Source: a virus (taxonomy: Duplodnaviria > Heunggongvirae > Uroviricota > Caudoviricetes). Taken from it: a DNA stretch of 10,940 nt. Position numbers and translations under genes: made by a program. The stretch is taken from positions 1 to 10,940 of IMG/VR virus record IMGVR_UViG_2703718840_000001. The stretch is one strand, 5' to 3'. Shown here one piece after another: positions 1,396-9,939 of this stretch (within the stretch, counting starts at the first letter, position 1; every line of letters begins with the position of its first letter). Below the pieces are notes generated by a model. It was not told where the DNA came from. It did not search any database and saw only the letters and a program-made list of their open reading frames with translations.

Positions 1396-3618
1396 ATGAG
1401 CACAAAATTCAGAACCGTTATCACCACTGCCGGTGCAGCAAAGCTGGCAGCGGCAACCGCACCGGGAGGGCGGAAGGTCAACATTACCACGATGGCCGTC
1501 GGGGATGGCGGTGGTAAATTACCTGTCCCGGATGCCGGACAGACCGGGCTTATCCACGAAGTCTGGCGACATGCGCTGAACAAAATCAGTCAGGACAAAC
1601 GAAACAGTAATTATATTATCGCAGAGCTGGTTATTCCGCCGGAGGTGGGCGGTTTCTGGATGCGAGAGCTTGGCCTGTACGATGATGCGGGAACGTTAAT
1701 TGCCGTGGCGAACATGGCCGAAAGTTATAAGCCAGCCCTTGCCGAAGGCTCAGGGCGTTCGCAGACCTGCCGCATGGTCATCATCGTCAGCAGTGTGGCC
1801 TCAGTGGAGCTGACCATTGACACCACAACGGTGATGGCAACGCAGGATTACGTTGATGACAAAATTGCAGAACATGAACAGTCACGACGTCACCCTGACG
1901 CCTCGCTGACCGCAAAAGGTTTTACTCAGTTAAGCAGTGCGACCAACAGCACGTCTGAAACACTGGCCGCAACGCCGAAAGCGGTAAAGGCCGCGTATGA
2001 CCTTGCTAACGGGAAATATACCGCACAGGACGCCACCATAGCGCGAAAAGGCCTTGTCCAGCTCAGTAGTGCCACCAACAGCACGTCTGAAACACTGGCC
2101 GCAACGCCGAAAGCGGTAAAGGCAGCATATGACCTTGCTAACGGGAAATACACTGCACAGGACGCCACCACAACGCGAAAAGGCCTTGTCCAGCTCAGTA
2201 GCGCCACCAACAGCGATTCTGAAACGCTGGCCGCAACGCCAAAGGCGGTAAAAGCAGCATATGACCTTGCTAACGGGAAATATACCGCACAGGACGCCAC
2301 CACAGCGCGGAAAGGCCTTGTCCAGCTCAATAGTGCCATCAACAGCGATTCTGAAACGCTGGCCGCAACACCAAAAGCAGTGAAGTCTGCCTATGACAAT
2401 GCTGAAAAACGTCTTCAGAAAGATCAGAACGGTGCGGATATTCCTGATAAAGGACGTTTTCTGAGTAACATTAATGTTTACAGCAAAGGTGAAGTGGATA
2501 AGAAAAAGGGAATGCGAAAGTATTCGTTTGCAGCCCCTGCAAATGTCGTTGCCGGGAAGTGGTATCCCGTTATCTTTCGCCGTGCTGCCAGCCTTTCAGG
2601 AGAAATGGCATCCCGCGTCGTTATTTCCACTGGTTGTTATAACGGCGATTATGTAATGAATAACTGCGAGTTTAATGGCATGGTTATGCCCGGAGGATGG
2701 ACTGATCGTGGTTCATATGCGGCAGGTTATTTCTGGACGTATCAGACCAATGAGCGTTCAATCCATTCCATTGTTACAAGCCTGAAAGATGATGATGTAT
2801 GTAGTGTTTTTTATGTTGAAGCCAGAGCTTTCCCTGTGCAAATTCTTGCAGAGGAAGGGCTAACGGTTATTGTTCCGACAGAGGATTATGTCGTCGGTCA
2901 AACGACATATAAGTGGGGGGCAACTAATCCCGCTACAGAAAGCACGAACGCACAGGCTATTCTGGATTTTAAAAATGGGCGCGGTTATTACTGCTCACAT
3001 CCATTTATTTCCAACCTTTCAGGAAATGCTGCAACAGCCTCAAAACTCGAAACACCGAGGAAAATAGCAGGTGTTGCCTTTGATGGTTCTGGAGATATTA
3101 CCCTTAATGCCAGAAATGTCGGTGCATTTGCACTTCGGCAGACAGGTAATACGGTTAATGGTGATACAGCCGTGGGATGGAATTGGGACAGTGGCGCATA
3201 CAACGCTCTGATTGGGGGAGCATCTGCATTAATTCTTCACTTTAATATAAATGCTGGTAGCTGCCCGGCTGTACAGTTTCGTGTGAATTATAAAAATGGC
3301 GGTATATCTTACAGGTCAGCCCGTGATGGTTATGGTTTTGAATCTGGCTGGTCTGATTTCTATACCACAACACGAAAACCATCAGCGGGAGATGTTGGTG
3401 CATACACCAAAGCTGAATCAGATTCTCGCTATGTCCGGGATATTCGCCTGGGCACTCGTGTTGTTCAGACCATGCAGAAAGGAGTGATGTATGAGAAAGC
3501 AGGGCACGTAATTACAGGGCTTGGTATTGTCGGTGAAGTCGATGGTGATGACCCCGCAGTATTCAGACCAATACAAAAATACATCAATGGCACATGGTAT
3601 AACGTCGCACAGGTGTAA
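1396..3618 (+). CDS. H: Tail fibre protein H (P2 gpH-like), with internal 44-aa tandem repeats and a divergent distal (receptor-binding) part
   Basis: 740-aa ORF preceded by GAGG (1388-1391). The N-terminal ~170 aa (MSTKFRTVITTAGAAKLAAATAPGGRKV...) and the extreme C-terminus (...YEKAGHVITGLGIVGEVDGDDPAVFRPIQKYINGTWYNVAQV) match P2 gpH as I recall it. The middle and distal part is AT-rich and contains a motif (NAATASKLETPRKIAGVAFDGSGDITLNA) that I recall as typical of side-tail-fibre proteins. Confidence 0.92.
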   Translation: MSTKFRTVITTAGAAKLAAATAPGGRKVNITTMAVGDGGGKLPVPDAGQTGLIHEVWRHALNKISQDKRNSNYIIAELVIPPEVGGFWMRELGLYDDAGTLIAVANMAESYKPALAEGSGRSQTCRMVIIVSSVASVELTIDTTTVMATQDYVDDKIAEHEQSRRHPDASLTAKGFTQLSSATNSTSETLAATPKAVKAAYDLANGKYTAQDATIARKGLVQLSSATNSTSETLAATPKAVKAAYDLANGKYTAQDATTTRKGLVQLSSATNSDSETLAATPKAVKAAYDLANGKYTAQDATTARKGLVQLNSAINSDSETLAATPKAVKSAYDNAEKRLQKDQNGADIPDKGRFLSNINVYSKGEVDKKKGMRKYSFAAPANVVAGKWYPVIFRRAASLSGEMASRVVISTGCYNGDYVMNNCEFNGMVMPGGWTDRGSYAAGYFWTYQTNERSIHSIVTSLKDDDVCSVFYVEARAFPVQILAEEGLTVIVPTEDYVVGQTTYKWGATNPATESTNAQAILDFKNGRGYYCSHPFISNLSGNAATASKLETPRKIAGVAFDGSGDITLNARNVGAFALRQTGNTVNGDTAVGWNWDSGAYNALIGGASALILHFNINAGSCPAVQFRVNYKNGGISYRSARDGYGFESGWSDFYTTTRKPSAGDVGAYTKAESDSRYVRDIRLGTRVVQTMQKGVMYEKAGHVITGLGIVGEVDGDDPAVFRPIQKYINGTWYNVAQV
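1918..2400 (+). repeat. In-frame tandem repeat array, 132-bp unit (44 aa), about 3.6 copies, inside tail-fibre gene H
   Basis: Direct reading: units start at about 1918, 2050, 2182 and 2314 (for example ACGTCTGAAACACTGGCC at 1951 and again at 2083). The peptide GLVQLSSATNS(T/D)SETLAATPKAVKAAYDLANGKYTAQDATTARK recurs. Copies 1-2 share the NSTSETL variant and copies 3-4 the NSDSETL variant. Confidence 0.93.
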
Positions 3619-4370: not shown

Positions 4371-4964
4371 ATGTTTACTAAGCGACGATTAAAAAATATT
4401 AACTGGGAGGCAAGTTCAGTGATTCTTGCTATGGTTCTCTTTGTTGGAAATATATTTTATACAAATCATCGTGATGATATAAGCATGGAGGCTGAGAGAG
4501 ACAGTATCAGAACAATGTTTGCATATGAAATCGCTAATAACCATCGCGCTCTCACTTTTCTTGATAAAACGAGAAATATTGGCTTTGACGAAAATTCGGA
4601 GCATTTTGTTGGCGAGCCTTTTGCCATTAATGTCGAATCATTAGGAGGGCCTCGCTTACAGATTGCATTAAACCAGACTGATAAAGTTTTTAAAGCCTAC
4701 TTCAGTGAATTAAGTAAACTTGATAAAGAGGATGTTACTCTTCTTATGGACTATTACCATGAGCAAAGCATCCTGCTGGAGTGTGTAAAATCTACGTTAC
4801 AGAAGATGAAAGGTAATAATGATATTAAAGTTGATATTGATGGTTACTTATTAGAAGAACACTTCATGAATGAGTTTAATCTTTCTAATATTTTGCTTAA
4901 ACGCTATAGCCATTTGTTGTCACAACACCTCAAAAAACCCGAAACAAAGGATTTACATAATTGA
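4371..4964 (+). CDS. Hypothetical protein of the accessory insert between G and FI: predicted single-pass membrane-anchored protein, function unknown
   Basis: 197-aa ORF with AAGGTG (4361-4366) 4 nt upstream of the ATG. It is markedly AT-rich compared with the flanking tail genes. The N-terminus has a basic stretch (KRRLK) followed by a ~17-residue hydrophobic segment (SSVILAMVLFVGNIFY), suggesting an N-in signal anchor. The rest is charged and likely helical, with no catalytic motif I recognise. Only one long ORF lies in this ~1.1 kb inter-module region. Confidence 0.7.
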   Translation: MFTKRRLKNINWEASSVILAMVLFVGNIFYTNHRDDISMEAERDSIRTMFAYEIANNHRALTFLDKTRNIGFDENSEHFVGEPFAINVESLGGPRLQIALNQTDKVFKAYFSELSKLDKEDVTLLMDYYHEQSILLECVKSTLQKMKGNNDIKVDIDGYLLEEHFMNEFNLSNILLKRYSHLLSQHLKKPETKDLHN

Positions 4965-6496: not shown

Positions 6497-7015
6497 ATGG
6501 CAATGCCGCGCAAACTCAAGTTAATGAACGTCTTTCTGAACGGCTACAGCTATCAGGGCGTCGCGAAGTCCGTCACGCTACCAAAACTGACCCGTAAGCT
6601 CGAAAACTATCGCGGTGCGGGGATGAACGGCAGCGCACCGGTAGACCTCGGCCTTGATGACGATGCGCTGTCAATGGAGTGGTCGCTCGGTGGCTTCCCG
6701 GATTCGGTTATCTGGGAGCTTTACGCCGCAACCGGTGTGGATGCCGTACCGATTCGTTTTGCAGGCTCTTACCAGCGCGACGATACCGGCGAAACGGTGG
6801 CCGTCGAGGTGGTCATGCGTGGACGTCAGAAAGAAATCGACACCGGCGAGGGCAAACAGGGAGAAGACACCGAGTCGAAAATCTCCGTGGTCTGCACCTA
6901 TTTCCGGCTGACGATGGACGGTAAGGAGCTGGTCGAAATCGACACCATCAACATGATTGAGAAGGTGAACGGCGTCGACCGGCTGGAGCAACACCGTCGC
7001 AATATCGGCCTGTGA
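6497..7015 (+). CDS. FII: Tail tube protein (P2 gpFII-like)
   Basis: 172-aa ORF (MAMPRKLKLMNVFLNGYSYQGVAKSVTLPKLTRKLENYRGAG...) recognised as P2 FII. AAGGAG at 6482-6487 overlaps the FI stop codon. Confidence 0.94.
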   Translation: MAMPRKLKLMNVFLNGYSYQGVAKSVTLPKLTRKLENYRGAGMNGSAPVDLGLDDDALSMEWSLGGFPDSVIWELYAATGVDAVPIRFAGSYQRDDTGETVAVEVVMRGRQKEIDTGEGKQGEDTESKISVVCTYFRLTMDGKELVEIDTINMIEKVNGVDRLEQHRRNIGL

Positions 7016-7071
7016 TTTTCATCCGGTCAGCCTGGCTGACCGGTTAACCCCGATTCAGAAGTGAGAAAACC

Positions 7072-7347
7072 ATGAACAAAGAAAACGTCATTACCCTGGA
7101 CAAGCCGGTCAAACGTGGTGAGCAGGTTATCGAACAGGTCACGCTGATGAAACCTAATGCCGGGACGCTGCGCGGTGTCAGTCTGGCTGCGGTCGCAAAC
7201 TCCGAAGTCGATGCACTGATTAAAGTGCTGCCGCGCATGACCGCACCGATGCTGACCGAGCAGGAAGTCGCCGCGCTGGAACTGCCTGACCTTGTGGCGC
7301 TGGCCGGTAAGGTGGTCGGTTTTTTGTCGCCGAACTCGGTGCAGTGA
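7072..7347 (+). CDS. E: Tail assembly chaperone E (P2 gpE-like), zero-frame product
   Basis: 91-aa ORF (MNKENVITLDKPVKRGEQVIEQVTLMKPNAGTLRGVSLAAV...) at the expected position between FII and T. It ends at TGA 7345-7347, just after the slippery site. Confidence 0.9.
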   Translation: MNKENVITLDKPVKRGEQVIEQVTLMKPNAGTLRGVSLAAVANSEVDALIKVLPRMTAPMLTEQEVAALELPDLVALAGKVVGFLSPNSVQ

Positions 7348-7499
7348 CGTTTCCGAAAAATCTCTCGGTCGATGATCTGATGGCGGATGTGGCAGTGATA
7401 TTTCACTGGCCGCCATCAGAACTGTATCCCATGAGCCTGACCGAACTCATCACATGGCGCGAAAAGGCGCTCCGGCGAAGCGGAAACACGAATGAGTAA
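7072..7499 (+). CDS. E+E': Tail assembly chaperone E+E' produced by programmed -1 ribosomal frameshift (joined 7072-7325 / 7326-7499)
   Basis: After a -1 slip on T-TTT-TTG (7320-7326) the new frame reads VAELGAVTFPKNLSVDDLMADVAVIFHWPPSELYPMSLTELITWREKALRRSGNTNE and stops at TAA 7497-7499, overlapping the ATG of T (7492). This matches the known P2 E/E' arrangement. Confidence 0.8.
7320..7326 (+). other. Slippery heptamer T-TTT-TTG, -1 programmed frameshift site for E+E'
   Basis: The heptamer is in the zero frame of E (codons GGT-TTT-TTG), 7 codons before the E stop. The -1 frame is open for 58 further codons to the start of T. Confidence 0.8.
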
Positions 7500-9939
7500 C
7501 AATGTAAAATTACAGGTATTGCTCAGGGCTGTTGACCAGGCATCCCGCCCGTTTAAATCCATCCGCACAGCGAGCAAGTCGCTGTCGGGGGATATCCGGG
7601 AAACACAAAAATCACTGCGCGAGCTGAACGGTCAGGCATCCCGTATTGAGGGGTTCCGCAAGACCAGTGCACAGCTCGCCGTGACTGGTCAGGAACTGAA
7701 AAAAGCCAGACAGGAAGCCGCAGCACTGGCTGTCCAGTTTAAAAATACTGAACGACCAACAAATGCACAGGCAAAGGCAATGGAAGCCGCGCGTAAAAAT
7801 GTGTCGGAGTTACAGGCGAAATATAACAGCCTGAGATTGTCGGTACAGCGCCAGCGTCAGGAACTGAGTCAGGCGGGTATTAATACCCGTAATCTGGCGC
7901 ATGATGAACGAGGGCTGAAAAACCGTATCAGTGAAACCACCGTACAGCTTAACCGGCAGCGTGACGCGCTGGCGCGTGTCAGTGCGCAACAGGCAAAACT
8001 TAACGCAGTAAAACAGCGTTATCAGGCCGGAAAGGAACTGGCCGGTAATATGGCCTCAGTGGGCGCTGCCGGTGTGGGGATTGCTGCTGCGGGAACGATG
8101 GTCGGAGTTAAGCTGCTGATGCCCGGTTATGAGTTTGCGCAGAAAAACTCAGAATTGCAGGCCGTGCTAGGAGTGGCAAAAGACTCCGCCGAAATGACCG
8201 CACTCCGCAAGCAGGCGCGCCAGCTCGGCGACAATACCGCAGCCTCGGCAGATGATGCAGCCGGTGCACAGATTATCATTGCGAAAGCGGGTGGAGATGC
8301 TGCGGCTATTCAGGCGACAACGCCGGTCACGCTGAATATGGCACTGGCGAATCAGCGGTCGATGGAAGAAAACGCGCAACTGTTGCTGGGGACTAAGGCA
8401 TCCTTTCAACTGTCAAATGATGATGTCAGCCATGTGGGCGACGTGTTGTCGGCAACGATGAATAAGTCGGCGGCTGATTTTCAGGGACTCAGTGATGCAC
8501 TGACTTACCTCGGGCCGGTTGCGAGGACTGCAGGTGTAAGTCTTGAGCAGGCAGCAGCCATGACAGGTGTGCTGCATGACAATAACATCAGGGGGTCAAT
8601 GGCGGGGACGGGTAGCAGTGCCGTTGTCACCCGATTACAGGCACCGACTGGAAAAGCATGGGATGCACTCAAAGAGCTTGGCGTTAAAACCTCGGACAAA
8701 AAGGGAAATATGCGTCCGTTGTTCACCATTCTGAAAGAGATTCAGGCCAGCTTTGATAAACACAAGCTGGGAACGTCTCAGAAGGGGGAATACCTTAAAA
8801 CCATTTTTGGTGAGGAAGCCCTGAAATCAGCGAACGTTTTACTGGCAGCGGCAGCAAGCGGAAAACTGGATAAGCTGACCGCCACGCTGAAAGCCTCGGA
8901 CGGTAAAACGGAAGAGCTGGTTAAAATCATGCAGGATAACCTCGGCGGTGACTTTAAGGCGTTTCAGTCCGCTTATGAGGCGGTGGGGACAGACCTGTTT
9001 GACCAGCAGGAAGGCACACTGCGTAAGCTCACGCAGACGGCCACAAAGTATGTGTTAAAACTCGACGGCTGGATCCAGAAAAACAAATCACTGGCGTCAA
9101 CCATCGGCCTCATTGCCGGTGGCGCGCTGGCGCTGACTGGCATCATCGGTGCCATTGGTCTTGTAGCCTGGCCGGTTATCACCGGCATCAATGCCATTAT
9201 CGCGGCAGCAGGCGCAATGGGAGCAATCTTCACGACGGTTGGCAGTGCTGTTATGACGGCCATCGGGGCGATTAGCTGGCCGGTTGTGGCCGTGGTGGCC
9301 GCCATTGTCGCCGGGGCGTTGCTTATCCGTAAATACTGGGAGCCTGTCAGCGCATTCTTTGGCGGTGTGGTTGAAGGGCTGAAAGCGGCATTTGCGCCGG
9401 TGGGGGAACTGTTCACGCCACTTAAGCCGGTGTTTGACTGGCTGGGCGAAAAGTTACAGGCCGCGTGGCAGTGGTTTAAAAACCTGATTGCCCCGGTTAA
9501 AGCCACCCAGGACACCCTGAACCGTTGCCGTGACACGGGCGTCATGTTCGGGCAGGCACTGGCTGACGCGCTGATGCTGCCGCTTAATGCGTTCAACAAA
9601 CTGCGCAGCGGTATTGACTGGGTACTGGAAAAACTCGGCGTCATCAACAAAGAGTCTGACGCACTTGACCAGACCGCCGCCAGAACTCAAGCCGCCACGT
9701 ATGGCAGCGGTGGTTATATTCCGGCGACCAGCTCTTATGCAGGTTATCAGGCTTATCAGCCGGTCACGGCACCGGCTGGCCGCTCTTATGTGGACCAGAG
9801 TAAAAACGAATATCACATCAGCCTGACGGGTGGTACTGCGCCGGGGACACAGCTCGACCGCCAGTTACAGGATGCGCTCGAAAAATACGAGCGGGATAAA
9901 CGTGCGCGCGCCCGTGCCAGCATGATGCATGACGGTTAA
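7492..9939 (+). CDS. T: Tail tape measure protein (P2 gpT-like)
   Basis: 815-aa ORF with a coiled-coil-like, Q/R/A-rich N-terminal part and a Gly/Ala-rich hydrophobic segment (LIAGGALALTGIIGAIGLVAWPVITGINAIIAAAGAMGAI...) typical of tape measure proteins. The start overlaps the E' stop. The sequence is recognised as P2 gpT. Confidence 0.93.
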   Translation: MSNNVKLQVLLRAVDQASRPFKSIRTASKSLSGDIRETQKSLRELNGQASRIEGFRKTSAQLAVTGQELKKARQEAAALAVQFKNTERPTNAQAKAMEAARKNVSELQAKYNSLRLSVQRQRQELSQAGINTRNLAHDERGLKNRISETTVQLNRQRDALARVSAQQAKLNAVKQRYQAGKELAGNMASVGAAGVGIAAAGTMVGVKLLMPGYEFAQKNSELQAVLGVAKDSAEMTALRKQARQLGDNTAASADDAAGAQIIIAKAGGDAAAIQATTPVTLNMALANQRSMEENAQLLLGTKASFQLSNDDVSHVGDVLSATMNKSAADFQGLSDALTYLGPVARTAGVSLEQAAAMTGVLHDNNIRGSMAGTGSSAVVTRLQAPTGKAWDALKELGVKTSDKKGNMRPLFTILKEIQASFDKHKLGTSQKGEYLKTIFGEEALKSANVLLAAAASGKLDKLTATLKASDGKTEELVKIMQDNLGGDFKAFQSAYEAVGTDLFDQQEGTLRKLTQTATKYVLKLDGWIQKNKSLASTIGLIAGGALALTGIIGAIGLVAWPVITGINAIIAAAGAMGAIFTTVGSAVMTAIGAISWPVVAVVAAIVAGALLIRKYWEPVSAFFGGVVEGLKAAFAPVGELFTPLKPVFDWLGEKLQAAWQWFKNLIAPVKATQDTLNRCRDTGVMFGQALADALMLPLNAFNKLRSGIDWVLEKLGVINKESDALDQTAARTQAATYGSGGYIPATSSYAGYQAYQPVTAPAGRSYVDQSKNEYHISLTGGTAPGTQLDRQLQDALEKYERDKRARARASMMHDG

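Follow-up and report, generated by a model that had tools for sequence, protein, structure and literature searches.

Evidence for a P2-type E/E' frameshift cassette in the tail operon of a caudovirus sequence, with a candidate upstream stimulator

Introduction

Does the short reading frame that overlaps the end of tail gene E in a P2-like virus sequence encode a protein of its own, or is it the C-terminal part of an E+E' fusion made by programmed −1 frameshifting? The question is raised by a stretch of 10 940 nt from a member of the Caudoviricetes (IMG/VR record IMGVR_UViG_2703718840_000001, positions 1–10 940), referred to here as the window. Its program-made ORF list gave a 91-aa ORF at 7072..7347 and a separate GTG-started ORF of 51 aa at 7344..7499, and the recoding event proposed in the initial annotation is, as remarked there, invisible in such a list. 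Levin in 1993, and Xu, Hendrix and Duda in 2004, 2013 and 2014, are said to have described a frameshift that is conserved between the major tail and tape-measure genes.

In phage P2, a shift at TTTTTTG gives a 91-aa E and a 142-aa E+E' (PMC3091744), and the description is credited to Christie et al. (2002, J Bacteriol 184:6522) in PMC3091744, PMC3931495 and PMC5009743. The E/E' frameshift is already known; the window holds a new copy, which adds nothing on the E/E' system itself.

Organization of the E, E' and T genes

The window carries, on the + strand, a P2-type late tail region with the order J (cut), I, H, G, a cargo ORF, FI, FII, E, T, U and D, the last of which is incomplete, being cut by the window end. 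The E/E' cassette was located between tube gene FII and tape-measure gene T, in the P2 order (Table 1). The products of T and FII were equal in length to their P2 counterparts, and the position of FII was also that seen in P2.

Table 1. Features of the E/E' cassette and its neighbours (positions in the window)
Feature	Position	Strand	Details
FII, tail tube protein gene, upstream neighbour of E	6497..7015	+	172 aa; PF04985 Phage_tube, E = 2.3e-60
Gene E, tail assembly chaperone (0-frame product)	7072..7347	+	91 aa; stop TGA 7345–7347
Shine–Dalgarno-like TAAGGTGGT, candidate frameshift modulator	7308..7316	+	3 nt 5' of the heptamer
Slippery heptamer T TTT TTG (X XXY YYZ)	7320..7326	+	P-site TTT 7321–7323; A-site TTG 7324–7326
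E' extension, −1 frame	7326..7499	+	57 sense codons + TAA 7497–7499
Composite E+E'	7072..7326 joined to 7326..7499	+	142 aa
GTG-started ORF	7344..7499	+	51 aa; program-made ORF list
Gene T, tape measure protein	7492..9939	+	815 aa; PF10145, E = 3.9e-44

Read in the 0 frame from 7318, E ends GGT TTT TTG TCG CCG AAC TCG GTG CAG TGA. The T TTT TTG, in the phase GG[T TTT TTG], was the sole in-frame X XXY YYZ heptamer of E, and its TTG codon lies seven codons ahead of the E stop, just as the initial annotation had stated. In the −1 frame, reading from G7326 gives VAELGAVTFPKNLSVDDLMADVAVIFHWPPSELYPMSLTELITWREKALRRSGNTNE (57 aa) before the TAA is reached; the 58 codons counted earlier are these 57 sense codons plus the stop. 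This frame is open from 7311 onward, is bounded upstream by a TAA at 7308–7310 (the first three bases of TAAGGTGGT) and overlaps E by 37 nt, the value also given for the P2 E/E' overlap in PMC3931495. The claim that it ends over the ATG of T was likewise correct: within ATGAGTAA (7492–7499) the T start (ATG, 7492–7494) overlaps the E' stop, an arrangement that suggests translational coupling. The calculated masses of E and E+E' were 9.7 and 15.5 kDa, respectively.

Pfam assigned residues 7–85 of E to PF10109 (Phage_TAC_7, tail assembly chaperone E/41/14) with E = 7.8e-13 and 48.7 bits against a cut-off of 25, and residues 104–139 of the fusion to PF06528 (Phage_P2_GpE) with E = 1.2e-21. No solved relative turned up when the PDB was searched with the E+E' sequence.

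Identity with phage P2

Over positions 6900–7700 the window was 97.6 % identical at the DNA level to P2 (AF063097/NC_001895) and 98 % identical to other Peduoviruses. The joined translation, aligned with P2 gpE+E' as the initial annotation had proposed, matched it at 140 of 142 residues (AAD03292.1/NP_046780.1/UniProt O64312, 'Tail assembly protein E''). The two differences, the conservative substitutions N11K and S29N, fall within the shared E part, so that E alone was 89/91 identical to P2 gpE and the extension, for which a lack of similarity would have spoken against the proposal, was identical to P2 E' at all 57 positions. The cassette shares with that of P2 the heptamer, its phase and distance to the E stop, the length of the overlap, the 57-codon extension, the ATGAGTAA overlap with T and the flanking FII and T genes. 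At the nucleotide level, 9 of the 428 positions in 7072–7499 differed, two of them non-synonymously; the extension had one difference, which was silent. Elsewhere, the window differs from P2 in the cargo and tail-fibre genes, the cassette not being among the differences.

The P2 record itself contains a two-piece CDS, 'gpE+E'', that shares its amino terminus with gpE and is described as a −1 frameshift product and 'essential tail protein'. A misc_feature, 'site of −1 translational frameshift', is placed at 19685, corresponding to window position 7327 and one base off G7326. The junction of the deposited P2 gpE+E', GFL-VAELG, was the same as that modelled here by re-reading G7326 (exact-sequence look-up).

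With a PF10109 upstream ORF, an in-frame heptamer, a PF06528 extension in the −1 frame and a location between FII and T, the locus is very probably the recoding cassette for the gpE/gpE+E' tail-assembly chaperones in a P2-type (Peduovirus) phage or prophage. No feature of the sequence spoke against this reading, and the frameshift call confirms the window as a P2-type tail operon. The further claim that the frameshift confirms a functional tail-assembly module held in part: FI, FII, E, T and U were all exactly of P2 length, but an intact cassette is necessary for function and by itself insufficient. That the cassette might be a relic in a defective prophage, no longer expressed, would fit the best match among complete E. 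coli genomes, which reached just 95.5 % over the whole window. It is vanishingly improbable given the preserved gene lengths, the few and mostly silent differences from P2, and the recurrence of the same alleles, both across hundreds of contigs and in Peduoviruses that have been isolated and form plaques. The exact E protein of the window was present on 833 contigs in public data.

Conservation of the heptamer and of the −1 frame

A reference set of 20 loci was compiled, comprising P2 and 19 further Peduoviridae whose E proteins were 31–76 % identical to that of the window. The in-frame T TTT TTG was kept in 17 of these loci, and in the remaining three A AAT TTT, G GGA AAG or T TTT TTC stood at the corresponding position. 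In all reference loci the −1 frame was open for 33–57 codons past the E stop, and the +1 frame was closed by 83 codons (median 29). The fused translations aligned end to end with a common GFL junction, and the E' motif DDLMADIAVIFHWPPSE...WR..A..RSG was present in 20/20 loci, the aligned form being (D/E)D(L/A)(M/V)AD(I/V)A.(I/V)F.W.P...........L.E...WR..A..RSG. The codon ahead of the slip pair encoded G, L, T, D, P or N depending on the lineage and always had T as its third base; TTG was consistently chosen, though it makes up just 2–20 % of Leu codons in these genomes.

The three phages with a replaced heptamer were Mannheimia phage 2256AP1 (G GGA AAG, the lambda-type heptamer), Escherichia phage 503458 (A AAT TTT) and Aeromonas phage 3 (T TTT TTC), and in all three the −1 frame still encodes the E' domain. 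In Mannheimia phage 2256AP1 no tape-measure gene came next within the fetched stretch, E' being followed by a small ORF and then by U and D.

A second set consisted of 320 IMG/VR loci in four clades (P2-like, Fels-2-like, phiCTX-like and Burkholderia), mostly close relatives within a clade. The run of six T was followed by G in 314 loci, A in five and C in one. The synonymous X base was invariant in every clade, against an average variability of 0.19–0.28 at third positions of E. Among 77 distinct close relatives of the window, positions 7320–7325 were invariant, synonymous sites included. In the stretch read only as E' (7348–7491), the variability of these relatives by −1-frame codon position was 0.031, 0.021 and 0.123, a third-position bias that points to purifying selection on the E' extension as a −1-frame protein. 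The E' stop over the T start was retained in 80/80 close relatives, even as the stop itself switched among TAA, TGA and TAG.

By itself, the heptamer did not exceed chance expectation. TTTTTTG showed no enrichment in the window (three occurrences, 2.83 expected), and a −1 run open for at least 57 codons was only mildly unusual: 3.5 % of in-gene positions had one, as did 8 % of mononucleotide shuffles of the region. The significance of the frameshift site lies in homology (PF06528 and the identity with P2 E') and in comparative conservation.

The same alignments bear on whether E' is instead an independent small gene whose translation begins at GTG 7344, giving a 51-aa protein with no recoding. 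The ORF 7344..7499 does exist, and such products are annotated as separate CDSs in many phage records and, under the name 'GpE family phage tail protein', on roughly a thousand contigs; the exact 51-aa product of the window was found on 995 contigs under that name, and the exact 142-aa fusion encoded by the window was absent from a collection of 15 billion proteins. No SD-like sequence was present within 20 nt before GTG 7344, however, and position 7346 was A in 41 of the 77 close relatives, which leaves a non-start codon. Across lineages the first possible start codon of the −1 frame ranged from 6 to 45 codons past the slip site. In phiT5282H and Klebsiella 3LV2017 no ATG, GTG or TTG occurred until codon 45 or 42, and those first starts fall downstream of the conserved DDL.ADIAV.F.WPPSE motif. 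In P2, too, E' is reported to be without a ribosome-binding site (PMC3931495), and the joined CDS is marked as essential in the P2 record. An own start for E' is extremely improbable on these grounds. The 51-aa ORF is most plausibly an artefact that the frameshift causes in annotation, produced where pipelines split E' off as a 'GpE family' gene, a common error that affects about a thousand contigs.

Ribosomal or transcriptional slippage

An E+E' fusion could also arise if RNA polymerase slipped on the T6 run and added an extra U to some transcripts. The junction would then read ...GFF-VAELG, and Phe would be predicted at residue 85 (junction peptide VVGFFVAELGAVTFPK, which a slip in the P site alone would also give), versus Leu85 in the VVGFLVAELGAVTFPK predicted from a tandem slip of tRNAs. 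What is conserved is indeed a homopolymeric T6 run, ribosomes shifted very poorly at U_UUU_UUG in E. coli reporters (PMC4066793), and one public annotation, QTN08932.1, models the E+E' junction as GFFVAELG, with GFF and not GFL. Transcriptional slippage is, however, efficient in bacteria at runs of about nine A or T (PMC5009743), for which six is short, and relatives with A AAT TTT or G GGA AAG have classic tandem-tRNA slip sites with no long homopolymer. The base after the run is moreover constrained (G in 314 of the 320 IMG/VR loci). Because of this constraint and the strict X XXY YYZ phase, re-pairing of tRNAs fits better than slippage of the polymerase. The event is also called translational in the P2 literature (PMC3091744, PMC3931495). 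Polymerase slippage was accordingly considered very improbable, and translational −1 frameshifting is the preferred reading.

Under translational frameshifting, most ribosomes on E would terminate at TGA 7345, yielding the 91-aa gpE. A minority, with tRNA-Phe on TTT in the P site and tRNA-Leu on TTG in the A site, would slip back by one base on T TTT TTG, both tRNAs probably re-pairing on TTT TTT. These ribosomes would continue at GTC 7326, add the 57-residue E' domain and end at TAA 7497. The frequency of the slip would set a fixed, low ratio of long to short product. Anatomy, homology and the constraint acting on the heptamer and the −1 frame were observed directly in the sequences compared here; by analogy with P2, from its literature and record annotation, both products would be made, the long one as the minor product, and E' would be essential.

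Comparison with lambda G/GT and other frameshift systems

The likeness to lambda G/GT claimed in the initial annotation stood for gene arrangement and mechanism and failed for sequence homology. Both systems have two overlapping ORFs between the tail tube and tape-measure genes and a −1 slip close to where the first ORF stops, with the short product exceeding the long fusion (PMC3091744, PMC5009743). In contrast, amino acid similarity is lacking (PMC3931495), and PF10109 and PF06528 were the only Pfam matches of E and E+E'. The heptamers differ (G GGA AAG in lambda, T TTT TTG in the P2 type), and the lambda tail is non-contractile, unlike that of P2. The product ratio is given as 30:1 for lambda, and the efficiency of the P2 shift as 2–3-fold higher, by Atkins et al. 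(2016, PMC5009743). E/E' and lambda G/GT are therefore related by functional analogy and not by family membership.

The chaperone roles ascribed to E and E+E' derive from gene position, family names and work on lambda. By analogy with G/GT, the shared E part would bind or coat gpT, the tape-measure protein, and gpFII, the tube protein, would be brought in by the E' domain.

The cassette has in common with E. coli dnaX and with IS911/IS3 an X XXY YYZ heptamer that follows a stretch complementary to the 3' end of 16S rRNA, which in the cassette is a putative modulator. In dnaX and the IS elements the heptamer is A AAA AAG together with a downstream hairpin or pseudoknot, whereas no conserved downstream structure was present in the window.

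Candidate stimulators of the frameshift

In E. coli reporters, frameshifting at U_UUU_UUG was 0.118 % when unstimulated and reached 0.247 % when the IS911 stimulator was supplied and 0.765 % when the IS3 pseudoknot was (Sharma et al., 2014, PMC4066793, Table S3), which places it near the bottom of the U-rich heptamers (PMC4066793). At 0.1–0.8 % the heptamer alone fails to explain the efficiency of several per cent cited for P2, and its weakness therefore makes a hidden stimulator plausible. The SD-like stretch upstream is a candidate for the element that would let a heptamer weak in E. coli reporters attain the P2 efficiency.

No stimulatory structure was found directly downstream of the heptamer, the sequence 7327–7400 folding no better than its shuffles (z = +0.89); no such structure is reported for P2 in PMC3091744 either. 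An Rfam scan of 6900–7700 at relaxed thresholds yielded two chance-level matches only, both on the opposite strand. A perfect 10-bp inverted repeat, CTGATGGCGG/CCGCCATCAG, occurs at 7377–7419 within the E' coding region and encloses a 6-bp stem (7393–7398/7403–7408), and 7290–7440 folds with z = −3.3. This hairpin was rejected as a stimulator. Its first base is 50 nt past the slip site, and across 19 lineages it was 68 % paired (65 % in shuffles), with many broken pairs and no convincing covariation. It is read as a lineage-specific by-product of the LMAD...WPPSE codons.

Upstream of the heptamer, the segment 7300–7319, which contains TAAGGTGGT, formed a duplex with the 16S rRNA 3' tail of −14.0 kcal/mol, a value among the top 3 % for 20-nt windows in E, with p = 0.04 under synonymous recoding. 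Averaged over 19 lineages, anti-SD affinity peaked at the 8-mers from −12 to −5 relative to the heptamer, with −5.15 kcal/mol against a background of −1.15 ± 0.81 kcal/mol, a peak that is confounded with a conserved K/E-V-V/I peptide. RAG-GTG was used by eight of the nine lineages that have K/E-V at the SD-like site; under lineage codon usage P was about 2e-6, which is overstated, since independence of the lineages was assumed. The 20 nt preceding the heptamer ranked in the top 0–3 % for anti-SD pairing in each of the four IMG/VR clades. The form of the element varied: most lineages had RAGGTG 3–4 nt upstream, the Burkholderia phages had GGGGGG about 10 nt upstream, and the SD-like element was missing from five lineages.

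The spacing of IS911-type SD stimulators that has been validated experimentally is 6–17 nt. In most lineages the SD-like core ends 3–4 nt off the heptamer, or 7 nt when measured from the AGG/GAGG core; in the window, 3 nt separate the end of TAAGGTGGT from the heptamer, and 7 nt the end of its AAGG part. From these sequence comparisons, RAGGTG may tentatively be put forward as an undescribed 5' stimulator or tuner of the frameshift with a shorter spacing than in dnaX or IS911, a role that we consider rather unlikely. Slow decoding of the rare TTG codon could be an alternative or additional contributor.

Cargo and tail fibre genes of the window

Between the tail-fibre assembly gene G and the sheath gene FI, a 197-aa ORF was present at 4371–4964 (+); at this place P2 has fun(Z), encoded on the opposite strand. 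The product had no Pfam or PADLOC match, and the ORF is also found in P2_AC1, P24E6b, P22H1 and other Peduoviruses as 'hypothetical protein'. The G–FI locus of P2-like phages is presumably a hot-spot for anti-phage cargo, and the ORF is therefore a candidate uncharacterized defence or conversion gene.

The tail fibre gene H (1396–3618) encodes 740 aa, compared with 669 aa in P2 (2010 nt), and its product matched the Phage_fiber_2 repeat four times and gp37_C weakly. These differences would be consistent with an exchange of the receptor-binding end.
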